Positions 15,246-62,287 of a DNA stretch of 64,000 nt are shown here, piece by piece (the stretch's first letter is position 1; every line of letters starts with the position of its first letter). Source of the DNA: an uncultured Acidimicrobiia bacterium (GTDB lineage Bacteria > Acidobacteriota > Terriglobia > Versatilivoradales > Versatilivoraceae); assembly GCA_963786955.1 (NCBI GenBank), contig CAWBAT010000005.1:1164127-1228126 (forward strand). Direction: 5' to 3'. Under the pieces are notes generated by a model. That model saw only the letters and a list, made by a program, of their open reading frames with translations. It was not told the origin of the DNA and did no database searches. Position numbers and translations under genes: made by a program.

Positions 15246-15248
15246 TTT

Positions 15249-15986: not shown

Positions 15987-16013
15987 GTTAAAGACAGGGT
16001 CAAAGGGGTTCTA

Positions 16014-17661: not shown

Positions 17662-17850
17662 GTGAGAGGAAACATGTTACGAAGTCACTACGAGTACGAA
17701 TCGATAAGACAGGCATTCAGGCGATTTTCATCTCTGGTCCCGCCGGGGAGAGAGGCGCGTTGTCGCTCAGTTTCTTCGCCCCTTCAGCGATGGAGGAAAA
17801 TAGTGACTTTCTCGCTCCCCTCGAGTTTTCGAGTCCTCAAATTGTTTTTC

Positions 17851-18654: not shown

Positions 18655-18697
18655 TCGCTTTTTCGCATTGAAGTAAGATTCCAAAATACCGATCACT

Positions 18698-19702
18698 ATG
18701 CATTCCGAATTCCCATTATTTCCGGATCAAGCCTCTACGCTGGCCGCTGAAGTGGATCATCTGTACTTCTTTTTGTGCCTGGTCACGCTATTTTTTTCAA
18801 CCCTGATTGCAGGGCTTCTTTTATTCTTCGCAATCCGATTCCGCCGCCGGTCGGAAGTTGAATTGCCTCAGCCGGTCACGGGTTCTTCGACTCTTGAGAT
18901 TCTATGGACTGTGATCCCGTCCATTATTCTCGTGGTGATTTTCTTTTGGAGTGCCAAGATCTACTTCTCTATCGCCCGCCCTCCATCCGATGCCATGCCC
19001 ATTTACGTCGTAGCGAAACAATGGATGTGGAAACTGCAACATCTGGAGGGACAGCGGGAAATCAATGAACTCCATATTCCCGTTAACCGCGCGGTTCGCC
19101 TGATCATGTCGTCTGAAGACGTGATCCACAGTTTTTATGTGCCGGCATTCCGAGTCAAACAGGATGTGCTGCCGGGGCGCTATTCAACCCTCTGGTTCAA
19201 AGGGACGCGACCCGGCGAATACCATCTGTTTTGTGCGGAATATTGCGGGACAAAGCACTCGGGTATGATTGGCAAGGTGGTGGTCATGGAACCGGCTGAT
19301 TTTCAAAATTGGCTGAGTGGAGGCTCTCGCGAGGAATCGATGCAGGTGAGAGGCGAGCGCCTCTTTCAGAACTTTTCTTGCGTCAATTGTCATCACTCGG
19401 ACGGGAAAGGCCGTGGGCCGGCACTCGAAGGGATCTTCGGAAAACCTGTCAGGCTGCAAACCGGCCAAACGATCATTGCCGACGAGAACTATTTGAGAGA
19501 ATCAATCTTGAATCCAAGCCTAAGAGTGGTTGAAGGATACCAACCGCTGATGCCGATGTTTCAAGGCTTAATTAATGAAGATGGACTGGCCCAGATTCTG
19601 GCATACATCAAATCGCTGACCCCTCAGGTTCCAGAGGCTGTCAGCGCCCATGCCACGAAAGATCTGGCCAGACCGAATGAAAGGCAGAATCAAAAACCAT
19701 GA
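18698..19702 (+). CDS. coxB: cytochrome c oxidase subunit II with fused C-terminal cytochrome c domain (caa3-type)
   Basis: CuA ligands (H...CAEYCG..H..M) and a C-terminal CVNCHH haem motif. Confidence 0.85.
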
Positions 19703-21330: not shown

Positions 21331-21979
21331 CGCTCAATCTGCGGCGCATCCAGCACTAGCCCATCACTTTGATACAGTCGAACAGCAGCGGGAGGCGTCT
21401 TCGCTGGGCATGTGGGTTTTCCTCGCCCAGGAAGTCATGTTTTTCGGTGGGCTCTTTCTAACCTACCTGGTTTATCGAAGTGCCTATCCGATTGCATTTG
21501 CCGAAGCCAGTCACCACTTGAATGTCCCCCTGGGTGGCACTAATACGGTGATTTTGATCACGAGCAGCCTGACGATGGCTCTGGCAGTCTTTGCTTCTGA
21601 AACGGGGAAGCAAAGAATGCTGATTGCTTTCCTTCTGTTGACCTTAATCCTGGGTTTGGGTTTCTTGGGGATCAAGACGGTTGAGTACCATGACAAGTAC
21701 GTTCATCATCTGATCCCCGGATTTGGATTCGCCTACCACGGTCCTCATGGTCTGCAGGCTCAGATTTTCTTTAGTTTGTATTTTGTAATGACCGGGATGC
21801 ACGCCTTGCACATGGTCATTGGAATGGGCCTGCTGATTTGGTTAATGGCTCTTGCGCGAAAGGGAAAATTCAGCCCTGAATATCATTCCCCAGTCGAGCT
21901 TTTTGGCCTGTACTGGCATTTTGTGGATATTGTGTGGATTTTCCTCTTCCCCTTACTTTATTTGATTGGGTTGCACTAG
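21284..21979 (+). CDS. coxC: cytochrome c oxidase subunit III
   Basis: [31 protein letters not shown]-terminus typical of subunit III. The true start may be TTG 21323 or ATG 21296 rather than 21284 (46-nt overlap with coxA). Confidence 0.8.
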
Positions 21980-22031
21980 CAGGGATGACGATCCTTACCT
22001 TACAAAACCCAGAGGGAATCTTATTGATCTC

Positions 22032-22331
22032 ATGTCAGAGCATATAGTACCTATTCGTATTTATTTGATTGTCTTTGCCGCCTTGATGGGGCTGACGGCG
22101 GTCACGATATTTATTTCCTACCATGATTTGGGACCCCTCAACAATGTGGTGGCACTGACGATTGCCGTTACAAAGGCCACTCTCGTCATCCTTTATTTCA
22201 TGCACGTTCGCTATAGTCCGAGCCTTACGAAACTGGTTGCTGCGGGTTCCTTTCTCTGGCTGGTCATCCTGTTGTCATTGACGATGGCCGACTACATTTC
22301 ACGAGACTGGCTTTCGTTCGTTGTCAAATAA
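22032..22331 (+). CDS. coxD: cytochrome c oxidase subunit IV (prokaryotic caa3-type)
   Basis: 99 aa with two TM helices directly downstream of coxC. Start taken at ATG 22032 (MSEHIVPIRIYL). Confidence 0.55.
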   Translation: MSEHIVPIRIYLIVFAALMGLTAVTIFISYHDLGPLNNVVALTIAVTKATLVILYFMHVRYSPSLTKLVAAGSFLWLVILLSLTMADYISRDWLSFVVK

Positions 22332-31592: not shown

Positions 31593-32243
31593 TTGAGAAA
31601 AGATACAGCGTGGGTAGCCTCGATCTGCCTTATATTGGGTGGCCTGATTGGTTACCTCCTCGGTGTCCAGATCACTTCGCAGGAACTCCGCCGTTCACCC
31701 TCCACACAGGCTGTGAATCAGGCATCGGAAGCTCCTTCGGCAGCCCCAGCGGGGGGGGTACCGGAAGGACATCCCCCCATTGTCACGCAGTCTGACCTTG
31801 AGACGCTCAAGAAAGCAGTCGAAGCCACCCCTAAGAACGCAATTTTGCTCACAGAGCTTGCCAATAAGCTTTATGATGCGGGACGGTATCAAGAGGCTGT
31901 CGGGTACTACCAGCAAGCCGTAAAGCTCGATCCGAACAATGTGAATGTGATTACTGATTATGGGACGGCGCTCTACTACTCTGGAAAACCCGAAGAGGCG
32001 ATCGCCCAATACAGCCGTTCACTCGAAATCGACCCTCGCCACATCCAATCACTGCACAACCTGGTCATCGTCAATTTGCAGGGCAAGAAAGATATCGCAG
32101 CGGCGACGGCCGCATTGAATCGACTCAAGGGCATAGAGCCTAATAATCCTTCAATACCGGAATTGGAACGCATGATCAATTCGGGCAATTCCGCTGGACA
32201 GTCCCCTCCTGCCGGAAGCAACCCACGACAGCGAATCTTCTAA
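31593..32243 (+). CDS. TPR-repeat protein with N-terminal membrane anchor
   Basis: TTG start. N-terminal TM (VASICLILGGLIGYLLGV). At least three TPR-like repeats (AGRYQEAVGYYQQAVKLDPNN...). Confidence 0.6.
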   Translation: MRKDTAWVASICLILGGLIGYLLGVQITSQELRRSPSTQAVNQASEAPSAAPAGGVPEGHPPIVTQSDLETLKKAVEATPKNAILLTELANKLYDAGRYQEAVGYYQQAVKLDPNNVNVITDYGTALYYSGKPEEAIAQYSRSLEIDPRHIQSLHNLVIVNLQGKKDIAAATAALNRLKGIEPNNPSIPELERMINSGNSAGQSPPAGSNPRQRIF

Positions 32244-36813: not shown

Positions 36814-36935
36814 GAGCTTTGCAGGGTGAGACGACTGAGTTGGTCCCCATCATTAAGGAGGGAACCAGAGTTGAGATGAGTAACTGACTGTTCTATCTTG
36901 CAGGAGGTGCAAGATAAGTGTCTAAAACCGGTTTC

Positions 36936-36963
36936 ATAGTAGCACAATGCGTCTGCATGTCAA
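36936..36963 (-). promoter_or_regulatory. sigma70-like promoter candidate for pyrR-pyrB-pyrC (TTGACA-16-TACTAT on the minus strand)
   Basis: Read from the reverse complement; no other support. Confidence 0.25.
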
Positions 36964-37135
36964 AGAGCCCTCAAAAATGGAAAAATGAGAAGTAAGGTAG
37001 AGAATTGTCGATGGGTTTCATATGAGCGAAGGACTCCTCTCTTGGGATAGTTGTTCCTCAGTTTTTGTGCGCGATATGGTATTTTATGATCGCATCGAAG
37101 AAAGGATACACATCAATCCCGTGGGTGAACGCAGA

Positions 37136-40100
37136 ATGAAACCAGAGGATCTGCTTTTAGCGGCCGAACTGGATTCCGCAAAAGCTTCCCAGATTCTAAA
37201 GAAATACGGATTTAAAGATCCGGAATGGGGCAGACCGTAATCTGCAGTTGATGGCTGAGGACCTCTCAACCCGTCTCATTCTGGCCCGAATCATCGGAAT
37301 TTATTGGAAGCTGCCAAGAAATGTCCCGACCCTGACTCTGCCATCAATTACTTTGAAAGACTTTTGGCCAATGTAGCGCATTCGAGCAATTTCTTGGGAT
37401 TTCTGGGAGATACTCCTGAAGCGCTCGAGGCCCTGATCCTTCTGCTTGGAACCTCCCCGTTCAGCGCCGAGATTCTGATCCGAAACCCCGAATACTTCTA
37501 CTGGATCCTGGATGAGTTGGGGACTCCGTGGATCAAGCCGTCATCGGCTTATCTTCAAGAAGCGCTGCAGGCGAAGGAGCCCTTTGAAGATGGAGAGCAG
37601 CAGTTGCGGGCACTCGGCCGATCTCAAACGGCGGGAAATCCTACGAATCGGCGCCAGAGACATTTTGAGAGCTGCAAACGTACTGGGGACAATTACCGAG
37701 CTTTCAAATTTAGCCGATGCTGTTTTGCAATCTATTTACTCCATATGCTTTCAGAACCTGGCTGGGAAACATGGCATCCCTTGCTTTCTGGATGCGTCAG
37801 GTAAATTGAGAAGGGCCCGGTTTACAATTCTAGCAATGGGAAAACTAGGCGGGTGCGAACTCAACTACAGTTCAGACATTGATCTGATTTTTATCTACGA
37901 TGGGGAAAACGGGAATACGACATCCGCTGAAAGCCTGCTGGAATCCAATCAACCGGGAGATCCAGAACGGACGCCCGCTATTTCTACAATCCCCCGGCCT
38001 CCAATTCTGGAAGATCTAAAATCCATTTCAAACACCGAATTCTTTACCAAGCTTGCCCAAACCATTACGCACGAACTCTCGAGTATGACTGAGGAGGGAT
38101 ATTTCTACCGAGTGGATCTCCGACTCCGCCCCGAGGGGAGTGCCGGTCCGGTGGCGAGTTCATTCACGGCCTGCAAAAACTATTACTCCAGCTGGGGGGA
38201 AACTTTTGAGCGAATGGCGCTGATCAAAGCCCGACCGGCAGCAGGTTCCACGGAGCTTGGAGACGAGTTCTGCAAAGCCTTCAACTCTTTCGTTTACCGG
38301 AAGTTCTTGGATTTTGCCGCTTTAGAAGAGATCCAGGAGATTAAGACTCGGATTGAATCAAAACTGACTGCCAGGAAAAAAAATGTCCGGCACGTTAAAC
38401 TCGGAGCGGGCGGGATCCGTGAAATTGAATTCTTCGTCCAGGCGCTCCAGTTAATCTATGGAGGTCGAAATCCGCAAATACAGGACCGCAGCACGGTCAA
38501 GACGCTCAGCCTTCTGCAGGGGAACCAATTTATTTCTACCGACGAGAGTGCAGGACTGCTGGATGCCTACTGTTTCCTGCGCGACTTGGAGCACAAGCTA
38601 CAGATGGTTAATGAGCTCCAGGCCCATGAACTTCCCGAAGACGAGGAGGAACTCTACAAATGTGCCCGGCGAATGGGCTTTCTGGAAAAGTCTCGTGCCG
38701 AGACGATCAAAACATTTTCTGAAAAAATATGAATCACACACAACCTATGTTCGGGATCGCTTTCAAAAGCTTATTTCTCTGAAGAGAGACGAGTGGTCCG
38801 GCGGCCAGATGCGAGAGGCCTCTCTGATTCTCAGCAAGAACCTCTCAAAACAGGAAGCCTTGGAAATCCTTGACAGACCGGGGTTCGAAGACCTCCAGAC
38901 AGCTTATAATCAAATCTGCTTGCTCCGCGATGCTCCTTCGTTTGCCCACTCGCCCTCAAAGATGCGCAATTTGCTGGCGAACCTCATGCCATCCCTTCTT
39001 GAGACCCTCAGGGTTAGTCCTGATCCGGATACAGGCTTGAACTTCTTCGAGCAGTTTGCCAGTGCATTAGGAGCCCGCGATTCTCTATACACTCTCCTGA
39101 ACGAATCCCCCAATGCTCTTCACAGTCTCATTCGAGTTCTCTCCAGCAGCCAGTTTCTCGCGGATTTTCTTTGCCGAAACCCCGAATTCCTGGATGCCAT
39201 TATCAAACTAGAATATTTAGAAGAGGCAAAACAACTTGAAGAATACAAATGGCAGATCAGAGAGATCCTTTCGGAGGAAAACAGCTTTGAGAATCGTGTT
39301 CAGGCCCTCAGAAAGCTTACACGAGGAAGAACTATTCCGCATTCAGGTAAGGGATGTCTTGGATCAATGTGATCGTCCATTGGTCGGTAAACAATTGGCT
39401 GCCTTGGCGGAAGCATGTTTAGAAGGGGCATTTTTGCTTGCCTGCCAAAGACTGGAAGAGCATGAAATGAGTTCCTTTCAGTCATGGGCGCAAGATCACT
39501 TTGTCATCCTTGCCCTTGGAAAATTGGGGGGAAATGATCTGAGCTACCAATCGGATTTGGATCTTGTCTATTTCTATTCGGTTGATTCAGAGACGAATTC
39601 GATCGGACGCAACGCCGCCTCACTCGTTTGGTAGAACAAATCGACCAGATACTAAGCGTCTCGACAGGAAAGGGCGCGATCTACAAGATCGACACCCGCC
39701 TCCGTCCTGAAGGAAAGAAAGGTGGATTAGTCACCCCTTACTGAAATACCAGCAATATCTCGAACATCGAGCCCAGCCTTGGGAACGGTTGGCGATGGTT
39801 CGCCACCGCTTATGATGGGGAGCTCAAGAAATCGTGCCATGCATTCTGAAATGGTGAGGGGCTTTGTCTTTCAGTCGGAATTTCCGTCCATCCGTGGTCA
39901 AGGAGATTGCCCATATCCGTCACCGAATGGAAATAGAATTGGCGAAAGAGGCTGAAGAAAATAGTTTTCATATCAAGGCAGGGGCTGGCGGGTTAGTGGA
40001 TATTGAGTTTGCCGTACAAATGATGCAGTTGAAACATGGGTGCCGGCATCCTGCTTTACAGATTTCCAATACTCTTCATCGCCCTGACGGAAATCAGAGA

Positions 40101-40275
40101 ATTGGGGCTTATTTCGCTTTCTGATTTCCAGGTTCTCTATCTCGGGTACGAGTTCCTCCGTTTCCTGGAAAATCGATTGAGGATTGCCTCTCCTTTTGGC
40201 TCAGGAACCTTTCATCGTCAATTACAAAGTCTAGGGAAAACGTCACGCCTACTTGGGATATTCAAGCACGAATGA
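37136..40275 (+). pseudogene. glnE: glutamine synthetase adenylyltransferase GlnE, reading frame broken at least 7 times (authentic pseudogene or sequencing artefact)
   Basis: GlnE-specific segments lie in successive different frames: CPDPDSAINYFERL, AMGKLGGCELNYSSDIDLIFIY, YRVDLRLRPEGSAGP, KLGAGGIREIEFFVQ, LGKLGGNDLSYQSDLDLVYFY, KIDTRLRPEGKKGG, IKAGAGGLVDIEFAVQ, LGYEFLRFLENRLR. Confidence 0.75.
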
Positions 40276-40369
40276 TCCTAGGGCCGCCAAGGATTTCGAA
40301 GGTGCGTACCTCGACATCACGAGTTCCGTAAGAAATGTGTACCAGAGAATCATGAATCAGTTGGCCTTA

Positions 40370-41050
40370 TCATGAGCTTTCTTCGATCCCGATAACACTC
40401 ATCATTCTCCCAGTTTTTCCTTTTTCTGCACGGTGGGAAAAAAAGAGTTCGGTCCGGCAAGCTCGTACAAGCCTCACTACTGAAAATATTGTGTGGCAGG
40501 ATCCCAGATTCGAGTAATTGGTGTTTGCCAGGCAGCTACAAATCGAGGGACATCGTTGTCGGCGCAGTCAAGTCTTTATGGTTGAAGCTGCGGAAAAAAG
40601 AATCCCTCCAGCGAATTCTTTCGCGAATGCCTGGACCATTTCCTCTCCGACTTCGTAGCAGCAGGGGCCAATTCCAGGTCCGATTACCGCCAGGCAATCG
40701 GCAGGGACAGTCCAGAAATTCTTTTGCATCTGTTCAGTCGGCTTTCATGGTGATTCTTTTGAGAAGGCCTCGCCAGCCAGCATGAATGGCAGCAATCGAC
40801 TTTTCGACGAGGATCGACCGCTAAGACGGGCAGGCAGTCGGCGGTTTGGATGGCCAGCAGAATTCCAGTCTGGGCGGTAATCATGGCGTCTGCTTCTGGA
40901 GCCGTTGCCAAATGGTTTCTTGTTCCTAATCGCAAAGATTCTGTCGGAGTGAGTTTGGCGCAAGGTGACCAGAGGGATTTCCCTGCCGGAGACTGCACCG
41001 GGCCAATCTCTTTCGATTTTCCAGCACGATTTCTGCCGGTTGATAATCAT
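40370..41050 (-). pseudogene. pgeF: purine nucleoside phosphorylase/laccase-domain protein YfiH/PgeF, about 4 frameshifts
   Basis: Motifs in different frames: LRQTHSD, EADAMITAQTGILLAIQTADCLPVL, ADCLAVIGPGIGPCCYEVGEE, FFSHRAEKGKTGRMMSVIGI. Breaks coincide with T6-7 and A6 runs. Confidence 0.6.
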
Positions 41051-41207
41051 TCAATCCAAGGTTAAGGTCTCTTTTGGGTTCAGGGTCAAAACGCAAGCTA
41101 AAACCGTGCAGCATCCACTTGAAGGAAGCTAGCGGTTGGTGATATAAGAAATTTCGCGACCGTTGAGATTAGAAACTGGTTATCCGTCATAAAGAGAGAG
41201 AATTGAA

Positions 41208-41585
41208 ATGATTGTGGGCATGGGAGTCGATATTGTCGAAATTGAAAAACTCAGACTCGCCATGATGAGACGAGGTGAGCGACTGCGCAATCGGGCGTTT
41301 ACTCCGGGCGAGATTCAATATTGTGAACAACGCGCTCACCAGTATCAGCATTATGCCGCCCGATTTGCAGCTAAGGAAGCTGTATTCAAGGCGATCGGCT
41401 CGGGATGGAGAAATGGAGTGACCTGGCTCGACGTGGAGGTTTTCAACGAGCTCAGCGGGAAGCCCATACTCCGACTAAATGGAAAAACCCTTGAATTTGC
41501 GAACGCATTAGGGGCCCGGAATTATTGGTTAAGTTTGACTCATACCGACCACTATGCGGTAGCCCAGGTGGTACTCGAATCTTAA
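41208..41585 (+). CDS. acpS: holo-[acyl-carrier-protein] synthase
   Basis: GVDIVEIEK...FAAKEAVFKA; 125 aa, intact. Confidence 0.85.
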   Translation: MIVGMGVDIVEIEKLRLAMMRRGERLRNRAFTPGEIQYCEQRAHQYQHYAARFAAKEAVFKAIGSGWRNGVTWLDVEVFNELSGKPILRLNGKTLEFANALGARNYWLSLTHTDHYAVAQVVLES

Positions 41586-41599
41586 GGGGCGACGATTCC

Positions 41600-43009
41600 A
41601 CTCGCCCTCTCCATGCAAATTTTTCAGAATGTCGACGTTTCGAAGACTAAGAAACGACCCGTGCCAGATAGCCCTTCCGAGGTGATTCCAGTCACAATGA
41701 CTTCCCGCAATTGATTCGATTGAATACTCGGGGGCATCGATCGAAATTTTCAAGTAGTTGCTACTCAGTGCGTCCGCGGATCTCTCCGGCTCATGCCAAC
41801 GCAAGGTCATGACTCCGATTCTCTTGCCGATGAACTTTTCCCTAAATTCCCGATTCTTACGGGCAGCCAATCTCCCTCAATTCATTACCTTGCGCTGACC
41901 GGTGACTTCACTTCGGCCCAGTCGGTCGCATCAAGGCGGCTGCTGTGCCGGGTCGTTGGGAATAGGGGAATACATGGAGATAAGTCATCGGCGCCAGGCT
42001 CAAGAGCGATTTTTGTTTCGATGAAGTCTTCTTCCGTCTCGGTAGGGAAACCCACCATGACATCGGCGCCGATGGCCGCATCTGGAACACGTTGTCGCAT
42101 TTTCTCGACTAGTCGGCGATAGAACTCCGCGGTATAGGGTCGACGCATGAGGCGCAGTATCCGGTCGGATCCGCTTTGTAATGGAACATGAAAATGCTTC
42201 GCCATCTTGGGCGACTGTGCGATAAGGTCAATGAGATCATCGGTATATTCCAAAGGTTCAATGGAACTTAGCCTGAGACGTCTCAATCGATCTTCTCGAA
42301 GAAGCCTTTAACCAACAGAGCAAGGTTTTCCTTTTCCCCAAGGTCTCTTCCGAATCCGCCCAGGTGGATTCCTGTTAAGGTGATTTCCTTATACCCCTGG
42401 TTTAAAAGTTTCCTGGTTTGGCGAAGGACTTCATCGATGGACAAGCTGCGGGAATTTCCTCGAACTGAAGGAATCACGCAAAAAGAACAACGATAACTGC
42501 ACCCATCCTGAACCTTCAAAACGGGGCGCGTTCTGTCTGCCCCTCCTGGATCTCCGATCGTCCGAAGCTCGCGGGACTCGAAGATGCTGCTGCAATAGAC
42601 TGTCGCCCCTGAAGCTCGAAAATGGTTTATTGTCTGGGGATCCCGCAGCATCGCTTAGTTGCCTCTCCCTTTGCGTCACAATCGAGACCAACTGATCTTT
42701 GTGCGAGTTCCCGACTACGCAAGACACCCCACTGATGGCAGCCACCTCGCCCGGCACACGCTGCGCATAACAGCCTGTGACAACCACACGGGCAGTAGGA
42801 TTTTCTCGATGAACTCGGCGAATCATGGTGCGGGCTTCAGCGTCAGCGGCGTGGGTTACCGTGCAGGTATTGATGACAACAATATCAGAGCGGTTCCACT
42901 CCTCGGATTTCTGAAAGCGATTATTCAAGAAAGCCTGTTCCAAAGCGGCGCCATCGGCTTGAGTCGCTCGGCACCCGAAATTAATAATTTTGAAAGTCTT
43001 TGACTGCAT
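41600..43009 (-). pseudogene. radical SAM methylthiotransferase (MiaB/RimO/MtaB family), frame broken at least 3 times
   Basis: N-terminal MTTase domain (FKIINFGCRATQAD...INTCTV). rSAM core (VQDGCSYRCSFCVIP). C-terminal motifs (HVPLQSGSDRILRLMRRPY; HVFPYSQRPGTAAA; TRAM-like IGKRIGVMTL) all in different frames. The 3' end is uncertain. Confidence 0.7.
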
Positions 43010-43013
43010 GGCC

Positions 43014-44070
43014 CTATTTTGTCCCTGGTCTGCTGAGAACCCCTACATCGGACAAGACCTTCTGAGCCATGAGATTTTTAATGGGGGTCTCGTTTCTAAC
43101 AACGTCAAGATAGGCATTTTTCAAGAGCGATTCTTTGCGATTGAAAATAATCTGACGAATGTCTGCCTGAACCTTGGGGTCGCTGAGTTCGCGTTGCCCT
43201 CCGGCTTCTTTTTCGATGAGTTTGACAAGATGGTATCCATATTTCGTCATTACGGGATCCGGAACGTTTCCCCTACTTTCAGGCTTTGGACCGCTTGACG
43301 AAATCTGGGATCGATGGTTTCCAACTGCTGAGCGCTCAAGAGCCGGAGGTCTCCTCCGGACTGGGCTGACGTGCTGTCTTCCGAATAGTCTCTAGCCAAG
43401 ATGGCGAAATCCATGCCGCTCTGGAGCTGTTTCAAGAGAGAGATCACTTTCTGCCGGGCGGCCTCGTCCGTCTTCGCGTCGTCGCCCTTACCGTTACTGA
43501 TTTGAGGTTCGGCGAAGGGAGTCACTAGGATATGTTGAACATGCCAGCTCTCTGGCAAGTTGTAGTTGCCTTTATTTCGAACAAAGTACTCATTAATTTC
43601 CGCTTCCGTGACCGAAATCTTCGAGGTGATTTCTTTGTTATAGAGCTTCTCAATCGTTGCACTCTTTCCTAATTTCTTTCTTGATGCTCGTCAACCGTAA
43701 CGCCCTGGTCTTTGAGAAATTGTTGAAACTTTTCTTCCGTAAAATCTTTCTTGAAATCATTGAAGCGGACATTAACCTCCTCATCACTGGCAGTAAGTTT
43801 GTCAATCGCAGCCCGTTGCATCAGCATTTCATCACTGATCAGTTGCGACAAGATGGTCAAACGTAGGGTCAAGATTTCCTCTGGTGAGAGGGGCTGAGCT
43901 AGACTGTTTGAGCCGATTTTGATAAATCTTTTCAACGTCGTTATCTTTGATCGTTGTCTGATTCACAACGGCGACGGTATCGGGTGAAATCTTGGGGCCC
44001 GACTGGCAGCCCATACAGATTACGCAAAGCCACCCAAACCATACCGAAAATCCATTGAAGTCTAATGTTC
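43014..44070 (-). pseudogene. SurA/PrsA-like peptidyl-prolyl isomerase (parvulin domain) lipoprotein, frame broken at least 3 times
   Basis: Lipobox-like LCVICMGC. Chaperone-domain-like segment (DEEVNVRFNDFKKDFTEEKFQQFLKDQGVT). PpiC/parvulin motifs (VQHILVT..., DFAILARDYSEDSTSAQSGGDL, YGYHLVK) spread over 4 frames. Confidence 0.55.
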
Positions 44071-44350
44071 ACGCCTGCCTCCTGTGCCTTTATGATGGCC
44101 ACTTATACTACCACCGCCCCATGTAGGGTACAACAGATTGAATGGGATGGAGTTCCCCAGCGTGGGATCATAAAAGGATCTTGAAACGGATCTCTTTTTG
44201 ACTTCTTAAAGCCCTAATTAGTGAAACCGAGAACTAAGTACTGCTCTTCATAAAGACGGTGACGGTAACGCCGGGGCGGTGACCGGGCCTACAACTTTGT
44301 AGGTCGCGTGCCCCCCCCCCGACACAGCGCCTATCCTGAGATACGTCACC

Positions 44351-45098
44351 CTAATTACAAATAGCAATACTAAGGGGCAGATGGCTTCCGACCATAGTTG
44401 ATCGCGATGATTCCTCCTCCAAAAACAGATAGCCCGTATCCTCAAATCCGGCTTTGTCCATGAGTATTTGGACGCCGTGCTGCGCAGGATAAAGCTTCAG
44501 CGATTCCGAGATATAGCGGTAGACGTCAGGATCCCCGTGCATGACCCAACCCAATAGGGAGCCCATAACCGTAAGATAACCTAAATACGCACGGCAGTAA
44601 AAAGGATTGACAGGTTTCGCAAAATCCAAGGAGAGAAATCTTCCGCCCGGTTTGAGCATTCTGAAGACTTCTGACAACAAACAAGCGATATCGGGAACAT
44701 TGCGAACACCATAGCCAACGGTAATCCGGTCAAAGGTGTTGGCGTGAAACTCAAGCCGGGTGATATCACCGACTTCAAATTCAATGCCATTGATTCCCAA
44801 TTGTTGTTTTTTTCGGCTAGCAATCTCAATCATACCGGGAGTGATGTCTACACCCAGGACCCGTCCTGTTGAGACCATTTTCGCCAGCATGAAAGTGATA
44901 TCGCCCGTCCCGCAGGCCAAGTCCAGAATAAGTGATGCGGTTGAACATCAGTCCATCGAACCAGCTTCTTTTTTCCAACGTCGGTCTTGCCCATAGGAAA
45001 GCAGAGCGGTCACAAGGTCGTAGCGGGGGGCGATCTTGGAAAACATCTGGTTGACATACAGCTGTTTTTTTTCCTTTCGAGTTGATGAATTCCTTCAT
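44351..45098 (-). pseudogene. ubiE: demethylmenaquinone/ubiquinone methyltransferase UbiE/MenG, 3 frameshifts (two in T8/T6 homopolymers)
   Basis: [11 protein letters not shown] / [29 protein letters not shown] / ILDLACGTGDITF...LKPGGRFL in three frames. Breaks at the T8 run 45065-45072 and the T6 run 44969-44974 (plus strand). Confidence 0.75.
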
Positions 45099-45303
45099 AT
45101 TCAGTCGGCTTGGATTAGCCATTGAGTCACATCTTTCTCGATCGGGTAATGATCGAATTGTGCCTGCACGGCGTGGTAGTATTGGTGAAACTCCCGAGGG
45201 CAGCCGTTTGGTCAGATACCCTGACCTCATTTTTTCTCAGCTTTTTCACGGATCCTGTTTCACTTTACTACGCCATTCTTTCAAACGCTCGCTCACCGTT
45301 GCT

Positions 45304-46602
45304 TCATAACCCTCTCCAGACGGTGTGAAGTAAGTTCTCCCGGCAAGAGAAGGTGGAAGACAATTCATATCCGTTACGCGTTCTGCAAAAGTGATGGGCG
45401 TATTTGTACCCCTTCCCATAACCCAGATCCTTCATGAGGCTGGTTGGCGCATTTCTTAAATGTAAGGGGACCGGATCCGCGAGAGTCATTTTGATGTCCT
45501 GGAGGGCAGAGTCATAGGCCTTATATATAGCGTTCGACTTTGGGGCAGTTGCCATATAGACTGCTGCTTCCGCGAGGGCAAAGTGCCTTCCGGAAGTCCA
45601 ATGAAATGGAACGCCTGCATGGCACTGACCGCCATGAGACAAAGCTGCAGGATCAGCCAATCCCACATCTTCGGACGCAAAGCGGACAATCCGCCGGGCA
45701 ATGTAAAGCGGATCCTCTCCGGACTCAAGCATCCGACCGAGCCAATATAAGGTAGCGTCAGGGTCGCTATTCCGCATGGACTTATGGAGAGCAGAAATCA
45801 GGTTGAAATGTTCCTCGCCGGACTTGTCGTAAAGCAGCATTTTCCGCTGGAAAGTATCTGCTAATAGTTGCGGGGTAATGATCTTCTTATTTGTTGTCTG
45901 ACAAAGGAGTTAGCTGAAATGCCAGCTCTAGCGTGTTATAGGCAGTTCGGGCGTCTCCGTTGGCAAAAACCGCGATTTGAGCCAATAAGTCATCCGTGAT
46001 TTCAATGGGTTCGGCACCGAGGCCTTTCTCTTGTTCAGATAAGGCTTTTTCAGAAGGAATAGGATGTCTTCAACCGTCAATGGCTCAAGTACGTATACTT
46101 TGGAGCGCGACAACAATGCCGCATTGATTTCAAACGAAGGGTTTTCAGTGGTGGCACCGATCAAGATAATATTTCCTGTCTCGACATGCGGGAGGAATGC
46201 GTCCTGTTGGGATTTGTTGAACCGGTGGATTTCATCAATAAACAGAATTGTTTTCCGGCCGTAAGCACGAACTCTCTCGGCCTCCGACATCACGGCTTTG
46301 ATTTCCTTTATTCCTGCAAGAACCGCACTGAAAGGAATGAAATCAGAGTGTGTCAAATTGGCAATAACGTGGGCAAGGGAAGTTTTCCCGGTGCCCGGTG
46401 GGCCCCAAAGGATGATGGATCGAAGCTCATCTCTCTCAATACCGACTCTTAGGGGTTTCCCAGGCGCCAGCAAATGCCTTTGCCCGACAAGCTCCTCCAA
46501 CTTTTGGGGGCGCATTCGATCGGCAAGAGGCGTACTTCGATCAGTCGCCTTCTTTAATCCATTCTGGAGATTGGAAAACAAATCCATATTCATTCTGGCC
46601 AC
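45304..46602 (-). pseudogene. rarA: replication-associated recombination protein A (RarA/MgsA), about 2 frameshifts
   Basis: N-terminal AAA domain ([34 protein letters not shown]) ends out of frame around 45900. The C-terminal MgsA domain ([30 protein letters not shown]) is in another frame. Confidence 0.75.
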
Positions 46603-46636
46603 ACCCTCAAAAGGAAAGACCCCGACATCCGGAAAA

Positions 46637-47443
46637 TCATTGTCTTTGGCGTGTTTTTCGTTGCTCAGCGGCTTGACAAAGTATGATGGAAGAAGCGACC
46701 GCTACATTAAGCGACTCTACTGAAGAGGAAATCGGGATGGTTATCTGGCGCTCGACTTGATCGAGAATATTACTGTCCAGCCCCCTTGCTTCATTCCCTA
46801 AAATTAAGACGACCCGCCCGCGATAATCAATGTCACGAAAGCCATCCCTTTGCCTGGGCCAGTGGCGTATACTCGGTAGTTGTTTTCGCCAAACAGTGCC
46901 AAAGTCGCTTGAATGTCCCAACCAGGAAAACAGGGAACCCGGAACACCGAGCCCGCAGACGCCCGAATAGCCTTTGAATTATAAGGGTTGACAGAATTCT
47001 TGCTCAGAATAATGGCGTCTGCCCCAAAAGCTTCCGCGGAACGCAAAAGAGTTCCCAGGTTTCCAGGATCTTGAATGCAATGCGTCAAAGACAATGAGAG
47101 AATCTTTGGTAAGAATTCTTTTGAAGCTCCATTTTGGGAGGAATACCAAAGCGGATACGCCCTGAGGCGTTTCCGTACTGGAAATTTCACTGAAAACCTT
47201 TTCGGACAATTGGATGACCGTGGCTTGGTAGGTCTTAGAGCTTTTTAGCAGGTCCTCCAAGAGTTTCATTTTCCGAGTCTGTTCGCTCACATAAAAGGAG
47301 TCCACATCCAAGCGGCTTTTAAGCGCTTCCTCAATGAGCGTAATCCCTTCGACAAGAACACGACCCCGTGAATCCGGCCAACCTTCTCGAATCTGATCCC
47401 TGATTTTTTTGACTTGATTGTTGGCTGTTGAGCGGATGATCAA
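46637..47443 (-). pseudogene. TrmH/SpoU-family RNA 2'-O-methyltransferase, 2 frameshifts
   Basis: LDQVQDPGNLGTLLRSAEAFGADAIIL and VLILGNEARGLDSNIL...[21 protein letters not shown] lie in separate frames. Confidence 0.7.
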
Positions 47444-47510
47444 GTATTCACTCCCTGGCTATATCCATTCATTGACCGTACCCGAAAATTTATGTTAATT
47501 TGCTAACCGA

Positions 47511-48149
47511 ATGATTACACAACGAATTAGGATACAAGATAGCACGATTGATGATTCTGTTCTGCAGGTTGCTCTGGCATCGATTGAGAACGGGAACATC
47601 ATTTCTGTCCCCACTGAAACATTCTACGTCTTGTGCGCGGACCCGTTCAACCTAAGGGTTATTGAAGAGATCTTCCTCATTACTAAACGGAAGGAGTGGA
47701 AGCCTCTTCTCCTACTTGCAGACTCGATAGACCAGGTTGAAGTCATGACGTCAGGTCTGCAAAGAGCCTTTTTATGAAATCGCAGAAAATTTCTGGCCTG
47801 GGCCACTGACCCTTATTCTCCCGGCAGCAAATCACGTCCCATTGAAGATTACTGGAGGAACGGGTACCGTAGGAGTCCGGATTCCTGATTCAAAGGTACT
47901 CGAACGTTAATTCGGTCATTTGATAGCCCTGTTACTGGGACGAGTGCCAATCTTTCGACTCACCCGGTATGCTCGACCGCAGATGATGTCTTGATCCAGT
48001 TAGGGGGAAAAATTGACCTGATTCTTGACCAGGGGGATACCCGAGGGAGAGCACCGTCTACAATCCTAGATCTTACTCGAGACCCCATTCGCGTCGTACG
48101 CGAAGGCGCTATTCCCCTTGAGAGGTTTTCTTCTTACTTGTCTCCATGA
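47511..48149 (+). pseudogene. tsaC: L-threonylcarbamoyladenylate synthase (TsaC/YrdC/Sua5 family), at least 3 frameshifts
   Basis: ISVPTETFYVLCADPFN, FWPGPLTLILPAANHVPLKITGGTGTVGVRIPDS, TSANLS, and GAPSTILDLTRDPIRVVREGAIPLE read in different frames. Confidence 0.65.
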
Positions 48150-48784
48150 AAGAGCGTGGAAAGAGAGTCCTTTTCCAGATATTATTCGCCTATCTTCCAT
48201 CTTTACTCCTGGCCTACATTCTTGTTCTCTATGTCCTGATTCGACGTAGTGCGGCGCTTGATGAATCTCAGCCAGCCGACATCATTTTCGTCTTAGGGGC
48301 TGCCCAATATAACGGGAGGCCTTCCCCGGTATTTAAGTCCCGATTAGATCATGCAGCAGCTCTCTTTAAAGAGAAATTTGCCGGTAAGATCATGACTACG
48401 GGAGGATATGGTTTTGACCCGAGGTACTCTGAGGCGGGGGTGGGCAAGCTGTATCTGATGAAGCAGAGCATCCCGGAGGATTGCATCTACACTGAGCCCA
48501 GCGGTCTGACAACCGGTGAGAGTATTGAAAGGGCCATCGAATTTCTCAAACAGCATAATTTTACCCGGGTTATTGCTGTCAGTGATGGCTTTCATCTGTT
48601 CCGGATTAGAAGAATCTTTCGAGATCATGAAATCACGACCTTTGGTTCGCCGGCTCAACATAGTGTCATTGAATCCAATTTTCGCTCCCGCACGCTGGCT
48701 TCTTTACGTGAGGTATTCATCTTCACAGCCTACATGGCGCGACACCATCTCCATATATCTTTTCCATTCTCCGAGATGTCCTGA
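48146..48784 (+). CDS. DUF218 (YdcF/ElyC/SanA-like) protein
   Basis: N-terminal TM plus a DUF218-like core (ADIIFVLGAAQYNGRPSPVFKSRLDHAAALFKE...TTGGYG). Start ATG overlaps the tsaC stop (ATGA). Intact, 212 aa. Confidence 0.6.
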   Translation: MKERGKRVLFQILFAYLPSLLLAYILVLYVLIRRSAALDESQPADIIFVLGAAQYNGRPSPVFKSRLDHAAALFKEKFAGKIMTTGGYGFDPRYSEAGVGKLYLMKQSIPEDCIYTEPSGLTTGESIERAIEFLKQHNFTRVIAVSDGFHLFRIRRIFRDHEITTFGSPAQHSVIESNFRSRTLASLREVFIFTAYMARHHLHISFPFSEMS

Positions 48785-48785
48785 G

Positions 48786-50363
48786 TCACTGATTCCTCTT
48801 AATTTTCAAGGTCTGGACAAAGTCAAAATTTCCAGCCGGAGACAACTCGATTTCCGAAAGGCGACGGTTGTACACGCAAACGGTGTCCATATACCAGAGG
48901 CTGATGTAGGGCAGATCATCAGCAAGAATCTTTTGAATTCTGGAATAAGCCGTACGTCTTTTCTCCAGGTTGGACTCTTGGCGGGCCTCATCAATCAGCA
49001 GGTCCACTTCAGGATTCTCGTATCGACCACGATTATACCCTTTAGGGGGAACTTCGCGGGAATGGAACGCTCTTTCAAAGAGGTCGGGGTCATTATTTCC
49101 TCCAATCCATCGCAGTGAGTAAATTTGAAAATTGCCTCTCACAATGTCTGCATAAAAAGTGCCGAATTCGTAGGAACGAAGGTCCACCGCAATGCCAACC
49201 TCCTTCAAGGCTTGTTGAATAATTGCAGCCACCTGTCGGGAAGACTCCTCTGTAGAGGTCCTGAACGTCAATCTAAAACGTGGCAGAGGCCCCTTGCCAT
49301 CGGGATCTTTCCAGCCAGCCATGTCGAGCAGATTACGGGCCTTTTCCGGATCATAGGAATAGCGCTCCAACTCGGGCTCATAAGCCCAGTGATTCGGAGG
49401 AAGCAAACTCGAGGCTGGGATAACCAGACCGCGCCAATAGTAGCGGATAATGTCCTCCCGTGGAATTGCATAGGCAATTGCTTTTCGTACTTTCTTATCC
49501 CGAAGAACGAGATCTTTGAGATTTAATCCGATGTACTGGTAATTGGTTCCTGGAACAGCTCGCCACTCGAAGATGGGGTTCGCGCTAAGAGCCATCACGA
49601 AATCAGGGGTCAACACGTTTTGAGCAATATCAATGGATCCCTTTCGTAATTCCAAAGCCCGGGTTGTGGAGTCCGGAATGACCATAAACCGGATGCGGCC
49701 TGCGGCGGGGGAGTCCTCCGAAATAGTCGAGATTTGCTTCGAGAAGAAGTTCTTCTTCGTGCGAGTAAGAGACAAAACGATAGGGGCCCGAGCCTACCGG
49801 GTTGCGTTGAAAGTCTTTGCCCGACCCATAGGGTACGATCCCAATCCCTCCGTTTGTCAAGTTCCAGAGAAATCCGGCAAAAGGTTCCTTCAACCGGAAA
49901 ACAATGGTGTGCTCATCCGGTGTTTCTATCGACTGGATAAGCTGGAAGGTGGAAGATTTCGGGGAAACGAGCGAGCCATTCAGGAGAGATTCAAAGGTAT
50001 ATTTCACATCCCTCGCCGTCAGTGGACCTTCCGTCATGAAACTTCACTCCAGACCGGAGGTAAAAGCAGTAGGTCAGTGGATCGAGGGATTCCCAGCGGG
50101 TCGCAAGGTCTGGTAGGATTTCAAATCTTCTTCCCCTACGGACCAGAGAACTAAAAATCAGTTGTTGAATTCGTTCCGATTCCGCACTTAATCCAATGCG
50201 AGGATCCAGACTGGTAGGTCCGGCTTCCAGCGCGATCGTAATGGCTGGGTCCATGGTGCGGGGATGACCCGCAGCCCTGATGAACACCAGCGAGTATCAA
50301 ACCTAATACGAGCCACATAGTTTTCCGGGAGCAAAAAATTTTGACTTGTAAGGATTTGAGCAT
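48786..50363 (-). pseudogene. ABC transporter substrate-binding protein, family 5 (peptide/nickel), 3 frameshifts
   Basis: Lipoprotein signal (MWLVLGLILAGVHQGC) followed by SBP_bac_5 segments split over 4 frames. Confidence 0.65.
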
Positions 50364-50503
50364 GGTCCGTCAGGAGGACAAACAATTGAGATCCGTCAAT
50401 GGGTGACAAAGTATGCATTGGCCTCTTTGAATCTGCCATTAAGAACCCAGGGCCGGGAAGAGCGAACACTTCGAGGCCATTAATAAACAAAGTCAGCGCT
50501 TTG

Positions 50504-51702
50504 CTACGAGGCCGGATACGTTTGAAATTCTTTCCGATAAATGATCTTCCCCAAGACCGTCATATGGCGTGCGCCCGTGGCTGATGGTACATTCCCGGGA
50601 TGAAAATGCAGCGTCTCATTAGCGAGGATGGCAAAACCAATAGCCTCTTTAGCTATAGACGGGATTCCCAATTCATCCGATGCCAAAACATCCAGCTGGG
50701 ATAAGACTTTCTTGATCCTCTGCATCAGGTAGGAATTTCTGGAACCTCCGCCCGATACAATCAGCTGGCGAATTGAGGGTTTTCCGAGCGATAAAAGGAT
50801 CGATGGCCTTCGCAATAGTCTGTACGGTGAGCTCCGTTGCCGTGCATATCAAGTCCTCTAAACAGAAAGAATTTCCTAATCGAAGCAGTTCTTCGAGGAA
50901 AGCCATTCCAAATTGCTCTCGACCTGCCGTCTTCGGAGGGGGAAGAGAGAAGTAAGGTTGCCGAACTAGTTTCTTGAGAAGCGCCGGGATGATTTTTCCA
51001 CTTCGGGCGATTTCTCCGTCTCGATCGAATCCCATTTCATTGTGGGTCATCCGTCGGACCAACCCATCAATCACCATGTTACCGGGCCCAGTATCAAAAG
51101 CCACGATTTCTGCCAGCGTGAGTGGCTGCTGGAAGAACTGTCACATTGGCGATACCCCCAATATTTAAGAGGATACGACCGTGCCGTGGATGTCGAAAAA
51201 GCAAATAGTCCACATAGGGGTATGAGGGGAGCACCTTTGCCACCCGCGGCCATATCCCGCGGTCTAAAATCACAGATCGTCGTTATCCCGGTTTGTTCCG
51301 CGATGATTGAAGCTTCCCCAATCTGTAGAGTCGATGCCAAAGTCCGACCGCAAAAGGCATCCGGCTCCGATTGATGGAAGATCGTTTGCCCATGGGAACC
51401 GACCAGGTCAATCTGGTTGATCTTAACGCGGGCCTCCTCACATAACTTAAGAATCGCCTCTGCATAGAGTGTTCCGATCAAAAAGTTCATCTGGCTGATC
51501 ACCTTGGGACGGAACAGGCGATCCTGAAGCGATCTGGAGAAGTTCTCGGTGGACCTCGAGAATCAAAGGGGATGGAGATAAAATGCCGCAACACAATTCG
51601 CGTCTGCCGACCTGCCCCAAAAATCTCCACCAGAGCAGCATCGACACCGTCTAGAGAGGTTCCCGACATTAATCCGATAACAAGTTTGGAGTTCTTGGGC
51701 AA
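50504..51702 (-). pseudogene. anmK: anhydro-N-acetylmuramic acid kinase, at least 3 frameshifts
   Basis: LVIGLMSGTSLDGVDAALVEI N-terminus. Middle (DLVGSHGQTIFH) and C-terminal segments (SGGGSRNSYLMQRI) lie in 4 frames. Confidence 0.75.
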
Positions 51703-54318
51703 TTATTCTTCTACTTTCGATTTAAATTCATTCAATTTTTGCAAAGCCTGTAGAGGAGTAAGCTCGTCAGGATTTATTTGGCGGAGTTCTTCAAGCACTT
51801 CATGATCACTCAGGACAAACAAATTCAGTTGATTCTCCAAGGAGGTTTGCTTTCGTTTGAAACTTCGCGTCAGTTGATCGCTGATTTCGTGTTCCCCCTC
51901 TTCATGCTTTTTCAGAATGTCGCGAGCTCTTTCCAAGACGCTGGAGGGGAGGCCAGCAAGCCTGGCGACTTCAATCCCGTAACTCTTATCTGCTGCTCCC
52001 GGCTCCACCTTTCGAAGAAAAATAATTTCTTGACCCACTTCCTTGACGGAGACATGGTAGTTCTTCACTCCAGGCAAAAGATCTGCCAGCTCGGTCAGTT
52101 CATGGTAATGAGTCGCGAACAAGACTTTGGAACGCAAGTGACAATGGAGGAATTCGATGACTGCCCAGGCTATCGCCAATCCATCAAATGTGGCTGTTCC
52201 GCGTCCAATTTCATCCAAAATGACAAGGCTTCGGGAAGAAGCGGCATTGAGAATCACTGCCGTTTCGGTCATCTCAACCATAAAGGTGGAGCGGCCGCGT
52301 GCGAGATTATCGGTTGCGCCGATTCGAGTGAAAATACGATCAATCAGCGGCAATCGCGCATAGTCTGCCGGGACAAAAGAACCCATTTGCGCCATGATGG
52401 AAAAAAGAGCCGTCTGCCGGAGGTACGTCGATTTTCCTCCCATGTTTGGTCCGGTAATGATGAGGATTTGATCGGTGGAATCATTTAGATAGAGATCATT
52501 GGGAATGAACTTTCCAAGCGAAAGTTGATCGGTGAGCTGTTCGATGACCGGGTGGCGACCTCCTTTCACGATAAACTCGCCATCGGGTGCAATTTCTGGT
52601 CTGACATAAGAATGGGAATGCGCCACTTCAGTGAGAGAAATCAAGCAGTCTAATTGTGCCAGGGCCGATGCGCATCGCCTGATCCGTCACTGCTTCCAGC
52701 GCAACTTTGGAACGAAGTTCTGTAAAGAGCTCATATTCAATTTCTACCATCCGGTCTTCTGCCCCAAGAACTTTACGTTCATATTCCTTTAGTTCAGAAG
52801 TTGTAAACCGCTCAGCGCCGACCAGGGTTTGTTTCCTTTCGTAATGTGAAGGAACCAGGCCCAGATGGGACCTGGACACCTCGAGGTAATATCCAAAAAT
52901 GTTATTAAACCTTACCTTTAGATTACTAATCCCGGAAAGAGAACGTTCACGGGACTCCAATTCTGCGATAAATTGCTTCCCTGAGGTACTGATCTGACGA
53001 AGCTCATCGAGCTCACTATGGTAGCCCTCTCGAATCAATCCGCCCTCAGTGAGCAGGATAGGAGGGTTATCTTTTAGAGCTTTTCCGATGAGTTCGGCAA
53101 CGTCCTCCAATGGATCTGCCAAGTGGTTCAGTTCTTGGAGGCGCCGCGTGGCGAATGATCCCAAGCGGGTTTTGAGGAAAGGGATTTGTTCCAGGGATTG
53201 TCGGAGAGCGACAAGGTCCCGCCCGTTGGCTGTAGACAGCGTTACCTTGGAAAGCAATCGCTCGACATCGTAGACCTTCTGAAGAAGTTTCTTAATTTCT
53301 TCGCGCTCGATCAATTTCCCTTTTAGTTCAGTAATGACATCTAGCCGCAATTGGATCTCGTTCAAATCAATTTCAGGGCGCAGCAACCAGCTTCTGAGCA
53401 ATCGTGCGCCCATGCCCGTCGAAGTTCGATCCAGACAAGAAATCAAAGTCGCATGTCTGGTACCGTCGAAGAGAGATTCCACTAACTCAAGGTTACGGAC
53501 CGTCGAGGAATCCAGTACCAGTGCTCCGCTCAGATCGTAGTATTTCAAATGGTCGATATGGCTTAGCCGGGCTTTCTGGGTGTCCTTCACATAATGTAAA
53601 ACTGCTCCAGCCGCGGCCACAGCGAGCTTACGATCCTGGCAACCGAATCCTTCAAGGCTCATCACTCCAAAATGCTCGGTCAGCGTGCGTTCGGCGTAGT
53701 CTGTCGAAAAGATCCAATCTTCAATGATTGTTTGTGACGGGATAAACTGGACAATTTGGTGAAGCCTTTCGTGCGGCGGGAGAGAGGCATGAATCAGTTC
53801 TTTTGGTCTAAGGCGTTCTAGCTCGGTCTGAAACTGTTCAAAGCGTTTTCTCCCTTGAACTCCGTGGTCTGAAAGTCTCCCGTCGAAATATCGAGGGAAG
53901 CCAGGCCCACGCCGCTCCGATCTACCCACAGGGCACTCAAGAAATTGTTCTCCTGTGGTTCCAACAGGTTTCCGTCGGCAACCGTACCCGGAGTCAATAC
54001 TCGGCTGACTTCCCGTCGAACCAGTTTTTGTGAAGGTTTGGGTCGTTCAACTTGGTCGCAGACGGCAATTTTGTATCCTTTCCTGACGAGTTTTGCCATA
54101 TAACTGTCTGCGGCGTGATACGGGACTCCACACATGGGTACGGACAGCCCTTTTTCCTTGTTTCGGGAAGTGAGGGTGATCTCCAGTTCACGGGAGGCGA
54201 CTACAGCGTCCTCAAAGAAGAGTTCATAGAAATCCCCCAGACGAAAGAAGACGAGCGCATGCGGATATTCTTTCTTCACCCGATGGTACTGCGTCATCAT
54301 AGGGGTTGAGGGTTCCAT
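51703..54318 (-). pseudogene. mutS: DNA mismatch repair protein MutS, reading frame broken twice
   Basis: N-terminal mismatch-binding domain ([30 protein letters not shown]), core, and C-terminal ABC ATPase (ITGPNMGGKSTYLRQ, DEIGRGT) in three overlapping frames. Junctions near 53818-53929 and 52628-52644. Confidence 0.85.
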
Positions 54319-54529
54319 GGAATCCATTCTCCCTTGGCAGGAGGGGTCATGCGGAGAAACGGTTGGTGCCAAAAATCCTGGAAGTATATAATTCCGGTGT
54401 TTACGAGTGTCAACGCGACCCGTTCCCGGTTGGCGGGCCTCGTGTACACAATACATTTAAACTCCGCATAGGGAGAAAAGAAAAAAGATCTTCTCGTGTT
54501 TTCGAATTCTCTGATGTGACCTCGGTCAA

Positions 54530-61742: not shown

Positions 61743-62287
61743 TCTTCCTCAAAATGGAAATGGTCGTCAAATTTCGGAACTTCTGGGCATAATCCAGTCC
61801 ATACCCAACGACAAACTCATCAGGAATCTCAAAGCCCACATAGGTGGCTGCTACATCTTTGGTTCTTCGGGACCGCTTACTTAAAAGAGTGCAGATGTTC
61901 AGGGAATTCGGACCGCGTGTCCAGAGATAACGAGACAAATAAATCAAGTGTCAGGCCGGTGTCCAGAATGTCCTCCACGATCAAGACTTCTCTCCCTTGA
62001 ATCGTAGAATCCAGATCTTTGACGATTCTGACCTCGCCGGAGGAGCGCTGACTTTCCTTATAACTAGAAACCGCCATGAAATCCAAAGTAGTGTTTTTGG
62101 GCAAATATCGGATCAAGTCCGCCAGAAAAATACAAGCACCTTTAAGGATGCAGATCAGATGCAGCTGCTTCCCCGTATAGTCGTCCGTTATCCGGATTCC
62201 TAATTCTTTGACTTTGGCCTGGATTTGTTGCGCGTCGATTAGAACATCTAGTTGAGTTGACACCTCAAGGGTATCAGGCGTCATCAT
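61711..62287 (-). pseudogene. hpt: hypoxanthine phosphoribosyltransferase, 1 frameshift
   Basis: [14 protein letters not shown] PRTase motif in one frame. The C-terminal [43 protein letters not shown] is in the ORF 61714..61947. Confidence 0.7.

Follow-up and report, generated by a model that had tools for sequence, protein, structure and literature searches.

In degenerating genomes, such as those of Mycobacterium leprae and recent endosymbionts, consecutive housekeeping genes are found broken by frameshifts. On the technical side, Flye merges related strains into consensus contigs (PMC8302730), and Nanopore metagenome-assembled genomes (MAGs) below ~40x keep indels that fragment genes (PMC9262707). 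Here we describe a 64,000-nt stretch of contig CAWBAT010000005.1 (assembly GCA_963786955.1, an uncultured Acidimicrobiia bacterium that GTDB places in the Acidobacteriota), hereafter the window, in which eleven genes of a conserved locus running from glnE to mutS are split by frame breaks. That these breaks are an artefact of one kind or another seems to us close to certain, and we consider it very probable that they are a consensus or polishing artefact produced by cross-recruited reads of a sister population ~8% divergent. The signature of the inserted bases, the distribution of the indels and the state of the same genes in related contigs all point in this direction.

Frame breaks in the window and its relatives

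Positions are numbered over the whole window, and frame breaks were counted with a custom frameshift-aware protein-DNA aligner against intact orthologues. A map of open reading frames (ORFs) showed short frames at 37.0–54.5 kb and long ORFs over most of the window, with a tiled-ORF N50 of 198 aa in the block versus 362 aa in 1–37 kb. This bears out the fragmented block of 37.0–54.5 kb described in an initial annotation of this DNA. The alignments placed ~58 frame breaks in 11 genes, the first at 37133 and the last at 53840. The initial annotation was thus right that eleven genes are broken, but its count of ~35 breaks was too low because closely spaced compensating shifts are invisible by eye. 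It had also correctly singled out acpS and the DUF218 gene as intact: the AcpS protein is identical to that of relatives, and the DUF218 product has the same length as theirs. Outside the block, two of the breaks it listed could be retrieved, namely 2 nt missing in gdhA and a +1 in hpt; a third, in brxB, was not located. In the left flank (31.2–37 kb), the gdhA/pyrC/pyrB/pyrR coding sequence contains one private indel, the 2 nt missing near the gdhA C-terminus. Window-private indels nevertheless also occur outside the block in the divergent intergenic stretches at 31.3–31.6 and 33.7–33.96 kb, so that the sharp block edge suggested by the initial annotation is not confirmed. Neither repeats nor tRNAs were found at the block edges, and no Rfam family was found in the window.

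Relatives of the locus were found by exact look-up of the AcpS protein, among the members of its 90% cluster and by a JGI scan. An identical AcpS is also encoded on a 1.76-Mb contig deposited at NCBI and ENA. Seven independently assembled relatives of 82–94% nucleotide identity were compared with the window, plus the contig L001; the sources were megahit k141 contigs, a Logan run assembly, a farmland scaffold, JGI contigs and an ENA contig_N record. L085 (the same as L167; JGI, 7.2 kb), L168 and L166 (megahit k141, 6.6 and 12 kb) are 92.6–93.9% identical to the window. L001 (ENA ERZ25039488 contig_73790, 87 kb) is 92% identical, L165 (ERZ25039487 contig_53265, 168 kb), L175 (Logan SRR21359329, 73 kb) and L176 (farmland scaffold, 41 kb) are 87–89% identical, and L002 and L003 (JGI) 83%. 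The gene order from glnE to mutS is common to all relatives compared. It is preceded by the same left-flank neighbours as in the window, TPR-gdhA-pyrC-pyrB-pyrR, in L165 and L175, and from pyrR onwards in L176.

In all relatives but L001 the genes are full length (GlnE 1078, RarA 454, the solute-binding protein (SBP) 528, AnmK 400 and MutS 871 aa), with L165 a partial exception, where the called RarA has 400 aa and the called PgeF has 250. A nine-way alignment over 37.0–51.7 kb revealed 55 indels private to the window (42 insertions and 13 deletions), none of which is a multiple of three, and 37 private to L001. The corresponding numbers in the other contigs are 5 in L002, 4 in L166, 1 in L165, and 0 in L175, L176, L168 and L085.

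Beyond these contigs, the closest named genomes that the scans reached were Acidobacteriota MAGs with at most 64% RarA identity, and the order of the locus is partially conserved in a distant Acidobacteriota MAG. Exact look-ups of the DUF218, tsaB and pyrB products gave no match, probably owing to differing start-codon calls. A search for MutS homologues yielded matches of at most 73% only, the best being to L084 (JGI 3300044699, a 79-kb contig). This contig is distant, with 68% nucleotide identity in the mutS region, and its genes are fragmented throughout: MutS is in three pieces, AnmK in two, and the genes for a RidA-family protein and an M20 peptidase are split. L084 is a generally noisy assembly and useless as a reference; it illustrates how common such records are in the lineage.

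Inserted bases and inter-strain divergence

Events found in the window only were polarised over 36.9–48 kb. They comprise 29 insertions and 12 deletions of one base, one +2, one −2 and one insertion of 135 nt; 41 of the 44 are thus 1 nt in size, and none exceeds 2 nt apart from the 135-nt element, which is genuine. Among the window-private indels, insertions outnumber deletions by ~3:1. L001 has the same spectrum (23 x +1, 4 x +2, 2 x −1 and 1 x −3). The initial annotation had located the breaks in homopolymers. This is not confirmed by the polarised +1 events, only 3 of which lie in runs of at least 5, while 17 (59%) are unlike either neighbour and 7 make a doublet; the T8 and T6 sites of ubiE are exceptions, and the homopolymer pattern is a biased subset. 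None of the 12 polarised deletions lies in a run longer than 3. Error of the homopolymer type (classic Nanopore R9, 454 or Ion Torrent; runs of at least 4) would account for ~10% of the polarised events. The spectrum is also not that of natural indels, for which slippage in repeats, deletion bias and duplicative insertions would be expected. No consistent sequence motif or methylation-like motif was found at the insertion sites.

When read in context, many of the insertions carry both alleles of an adjoining single-nucleotide polymorphism (SNP) in tandem. One example is AAT-C-GAC, where L001 has T and L085 has C; in another, CCAGATAG is a hybrid of CCAGTAG and CCGATAG. In a first alignment this signature was present in 13 of 22 window-only and 8 of 14 L001-only insertions, where permutation expects 2.9 and 1.8, respectively. 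As a control, insertions were introduced at random positions of intact L085 and realigned with the same aligner in 25 rounds; 10% of them (56/582) showed the signature, compared with the 50% and 57% observed. Over the whole block, the inserted base is the alternative allele of an adjoining SNP in 22 of 42 window-private 1-nt insertions (52%, p ~1e-11) and in 22 of 30 L001-private ones (73%, p ~1e-16). The alleles inserted in the window are those of L001, L165, L175, L176 and L002, and never those of its own clade (L085, L166 and L168). Those inserted in L001 are mainly alleles of the window, L166 and L002, and some are of L085 and L168. The donor lineages are therefore reciprocal, each noisy contig being polluted by alleles of the other lineage. 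One-nucleotide insertions outside homopolymers that bear the other allele of a neighbouring SNP indicate a mixed-strain consensus. The sequencing or assembly indel error proposed in the initial annotation is therefore supported as an artefact, and the homopolymer miscalling that it implied is not.

The density of the indels follows divergence. Indels per 500 bp correlate with substitution divergence between the window and L001 (Spearman 0.71, p = 5e-7): bins of up to 5.6% divergence, which cover acpS, part of the SBP gene and the flanking pyr/gdhA genes, hold 0–3 indels, and the pgeF bin, at 11% divergence, holds 13. The per-kb indel profiles of the window and L001 are correlated as well (rho 0.53, p = 0.014). 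The block is thus simply where divergence between the two populations peaks within the window. Indels private to an assembly, insertions of hybrid haplotype and a density that follows divergence are what a mixed-strain artefact predicts, and all three were found.

The similarity of the window to its relatives changes along the locus. At 36867–38667 the window is nearly identical to L085, with 24 window-unique and 15 L085-unique differences as against 157 unique to L001; beyond ~38.7 kb the window, L085 and L001 become roughly equidistant. The shift at ~38.7 kb may represent either a recombination breakpoint or a change in the composition of the consensus. A runs test for mosaicism or recombination after 38.9 kb was not significant (z = −1.5) and neither helps nor hurts.

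In the mechanism that we propose, the backbone of the contig would derive from one population, of the L085/L166/L168 type, and a sister population of the L001/L165/L175 type, ~8% different in DNA, would co-occur in such samples. At sites of difference, consensus building or polishing of this contig would draw in reads from the second population, and the caller would then write a hybrid sequence, mostly by placing both SNP alleles side by side, which adds one base and shifts the frame. The resulting noise would gather in faster-diverging genes and spacers (37–54 kb and the divergent intergenic stretches) and would spare highly conserved sequence, for example acpS, gdhA, pyrB/C and the respiratory operons. 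L001 would represent the reciprocal contamination. L001 and L165 bear contig_N names and have adjacent ERZ accessions, which hints at a long-read project.

The nature of the backbone can be read from the 135-nt insertion (44239–44373), which sits between the surA-like gene and the ubiE stop and has a 6-bp direct repeat, ACTAAG, on both sides. It contains a C10 run and has a strong minus-strand fold (−58.5 kcal/mol). A 100% identical copy exists in the intact megahit contig L166, and L001, L165, L175, L176 and L002 lack the insertion. It has the appearance of a genuine insert that is specific to one lineage and resembles a miniature inverted-repeat transposable element (MITE). Its occurrence in both the window and L166 points to a window backbone of the L166-type lineage.

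Some breaks are shared by the two noisy contigs. Between 6 and 11 break positions coincide in the window and L001, in glnE, pgeF, rarA, tsaC and anmK. Six identical indels lie on different flanking haplotypes and are missing from the closer relatives of each contig, and the shared indels are absent in four to seven other relatives; the +1 in tsaC (G at 47759), for instance, is identical in L001 and absent in five relatives. The shared indels are therefore homoplasies and not the result of descent. A technical process acting reciprocally, or miscalls tied to sequence context, would be expected to produce such homoplasies. Inheritance of the shared frameshifts was considered and rejected, as 136 derived sites join the window to intact L085 and only 28 join it to L001.

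Several points weigh against a mixed-strain consensus. The read-level mechanism, the long-read platform and the intactness of the real genes are all what we infer from assembled sequence alone. The tandem-allele signature is missing from about half of the insertions and from the deletions, for which a further source of error has to be assumed, for example low depth or miscalls tied to sequence context. The insertions at 47759 (G, tsaC) and 51557 (C, anmK), which correspond to L001 16425 and 20211, lie in contexts conserved across all other relatives; allele mixing therefore does not explain them, and they are a loose end that may reflect context-specific miscalls. The closest intact relative is only ~94% identical to the window, and no intact copy from the same strain was found. 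L165 comes from an ENA assembly accession adjacent to that of L001 and is clean, and the effect therefore depends on sample or depth. A few of the breaks could also be genuine.

The breaks could instead be taken for plain low-depth consensus error, in which random indels from a few noisy long reads survive polishing with no second strain involved. About half of the insertions and most of the deletions do not bear the signature, the inserted bases are near random relative to their neighbours, their sites share no motif, and retention of indels is known from low-coverage Nanopore bins (PMC9262707). Error of this kind, however, would not be expected to yield the other allele of an adjoining SNP at five to seven times the control rate. 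It would also not follow inter-strain divergence, spare acpS and the DUF218 gene in two assemblies, recur at positions identical to those in L001, or come without an excess of substitutions, and we regard it as unlikely. Raw-read-like error with a mismatch excess was examined separately and rejected, as the window branch shows no excess of substitutions.

Coding constraint and genes of the block

To assign codon positions we used the L085 reading frames. At codon positions 1, 2 and 3 there are 45, 46 and 147 substitutions unique to the window, and 58, 43 and 163 on the branch of its intact sister L085. The (p1+p2)/p3 ratio is 0.62 on both branches, that of the window being no longer than that of L085. 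The third-position bias whose loss would mark relaxed selection is therefore unchanged. It persists gene by gene; pgeF is flatter, but to the same degree when intact sequences are compared with each other. Once the frames are corrected, the window proteins are 89–95% identical to intact orthologues, and no genuine in-frame stop was found in ~15 kb of coding sequence. The sole stop inside a gene (pgeF, 40536) falls between a compensating pair of indels, and the other two reported stops lie upstream of true start codons. The nonsense codons and multi-base deletions that accompany frameshifts in a pseudogene cluster were not seen. Some 58 indels without a detectable excess of neutral substitutions are the reverse of natural bacterial mutation spectra. 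The genes of the block are almost certainly not decaying.

The alternative offered in the initial annotation was decay by strand slippage at a locus under relaxed selection, for example a decaying duplicate segment or a degenerating genome. The unchanged codon bias, the lack of stops and the native flanks give this no support, and the 0–5 private indels of the other relatives, versus 55 in the window, count further against decay. A very recent, genuine pseudogenisation of the native 17-kb locus, whether through relaxed selection, through a mutator with defective mutS or through degeneration of the genome, could be argued from the presence of mutS among the broken genes, from the breaks that occur in two assemblies and from the intact state of the two shortest genes, of which acpS is essential; on the L001 branch, pgeF also has a flat codon pattern (17/14/16). 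We nevertheless judge it very improbable. Codon constraint is not relaxed, the window branch has gained no extra substitutions and no genuine nonsense codon remains after correction. The insertion bias and the non-duplicative insertions are unlike slippage or loss of mismatch repair, a mutator would not stay within divergent stretches, and the indels shared with L001 are homoplasies on different haplotypes. To our knowledge, there is no mutational explanation for the tandem-allele signature. Only a slim chance is left that the breaks shared with L001, at 6–11 positions in glnE, pgeF, rarA, tsaC and anmK, are genuine in the DNA. If they were, they would represent recurrent frameshifts, tolerated or corrected at expression, in core genes of an uncultured soil/sediment lineage under purifying selection.

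If the segment were a decaying duplicate and a functional copy survived intact at another place in the genome, the cell could be viable despite broken essential genes (tsaC, for example). The copy described here is, however, itself under purifying selection, and its position and order are those of the single intact locus in the relatives that reach the left flank (TPR-gdhA-pyrC-pyrB-pyrR, then glnE to mutS); it is therefore the native single locus and not a duplicate. No second match to the block exists within the window, and a contig scan with RarA found no second copy, although that scan was saturated by distant homologues of at most 64% identity. The duplicate is thus barely credible. Real frameshifts corrected at expression, by programmed frameshifting, transcriptional slippage or RNA insertion/deletion editing, would fit the codon-level purifying selection across the breaks and the recurrence of some positions in a second lineage, but are vanishingly improbable given that no conserved slippery or common motif was found, that the sites are missing in the closest relatives and mostly private to one assembly, and that the inserted bases mirror alleles of neighbouring populations; we know of no expression-correction system of such density in bacteria.

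The genes of the block were identified from the Pfam annotation of their orthologues on related contigs. glnE (37136–40372, plus strand) has 11 breaks relative to the intact 1078-aa GlnE of L085, four of them common to L001; after frame correction it contains no stops and 1020 of 1078 aa are identical to L085 GlnE. pgeF (Cu-oxidase_4/YfiH family; 40373–41190, minus strand) has 7 breaks and one compensating pair, is the most divergent gene of the block and carries the densest indels in the window and L001 alike. It is followed by acpS (ACPS; 41208–41585, plus strand), which is intact at 125 aa, encodes a protein identical to that of the relatives and sits in the lowest-divergence bin of the block (4.6%). 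On the minus strand, a MiaB/RimO-like methylthiotransferase gene (UPF0004 and Radical_SAM; 41647–43009) has 8 breaks, a SurA/PpiD-like rotamase gene (SurA_N and Rotamase; 43014–44100) 5–6, and ubiE (44370–45126) 4, two of which adjoin T8 and T6 runs. The 6 breaks of rarA (AAA and MgsA_C; 45230–46602, minus strand) were confirmed against five independent RarA references, and two of their positions are common to L001.

In the remainder of the block, a trmH-family (SpoU) methyltransferase gene (46637–47443, minus strand) has 2–3 breaks and tsaC (Sua5/YrdC; 47511–48149, plus strand) has 2, one of them the +1 G at 47759. The DUF218 gene (48146–48784, plus strand) is intact, with 212 aa as in L165, L175 and L176. 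The gene for a peptide/oligopeptide solute-binding protein (SBP_bac_5; 48786–50363, minus strand) shows 6 breaks against the uninterrupted 535-aa frame of L001, to which the corrected product is identical at 505 of 534 aa. anmK (50504–51702, minus strand) has 5 breaks. mutS (51703–54318, minus strand), called as an 871-aa gene in L165, L175 and L176, has 2–4, at 53840, 52684 and possibly 51858 and 51835.

Outside the block, the respiratory cluster at 9513–22331 (plus strand) consists of full-length ORFs with full-length Pfam domains, in a region for which close relatives for comparison are lacking. It comprises Alternative Complex III-like genes (a multihaem cytochrome c, a 1019-aa Fe-S subunit, NrfD, ActD and a cytochrome c), SCO1/SenC and the COX2, COX1, COX3 and COX4 subunits of an aa3-type cytochrome oxidase. 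Upstream of it, at 5957–8085 (plus strand), a small islet is made up of a DUF4258 gene and a T5orf172/MUG113-domain gene, the latter also with a weak, sub-threshold match to an HNH-associated repeat; the islet could be a mobile or defence-related insert. The TPR gene (31593–32243) carries an in-frame 12-nt insertion at 31725 that is common to the window and L001; L165 and L175 lack it. The insertion nearly duplicates the adjoining sequence in tandem and looks like a real character. The hpt-like phosphoribosyltransferase gene (61750–62287, minus strand) has a single +1 break near 61924, among the few outside the block.

Meaning of the breaks and comparison with known systems

The organism most likely has intact glnE, pgeF, rarA, tsaC, mutS and other block genes, and biologically the locus would hold nothing new. 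Automatic annotation would nonetheless list eleven pseudogenes, including mutS and tsaC, and could thereby mislead inferences about metabolism, mutator status or genome reduction. Private 1-nt insertions that break the frame and repeat the other allele of a neighbouring SNP offer a diagnostic of such artefacts that needs no reads. Unchanged codon-position bias, the lack of stop codons and an indel density that follows inter-strain divergence are further signs.

The window shares with decay of the Mycobacterium leprae type a series of consecutive frameshifted housekeeping genes. The relaxed codon constraint, stops, deletion bias and larger deletions of such decay are all unseen here. Like low-coverage Nanopore MAGs with low IDEEL scores (PMC9262707), the window has many 1-nt indels that split conserved genes, its sequence stems from an unpolished metagenome assembly, and other assemblies of relatives are clean. 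That literature describes homopolymer deletions distributed genome-wide, whereas the window has mostly non-homopolymer insertions clustered in divergent stretches. A further likeness is to the strain-collapsed Flye contigs of the Strainberry paper (PMC8302730), in which one contig represents several related populations: the window likewise carries the alleles of two lineages, and its errors sit where those lineages differ. The tandem both-allele insertion signature is a reading of the present analysis and does not come from that paper. The cases described there involve strains ~98–99% identical that collapse genome-wide, whereas the partners here are ~92% identical and appear mixed in divergent stretches only.

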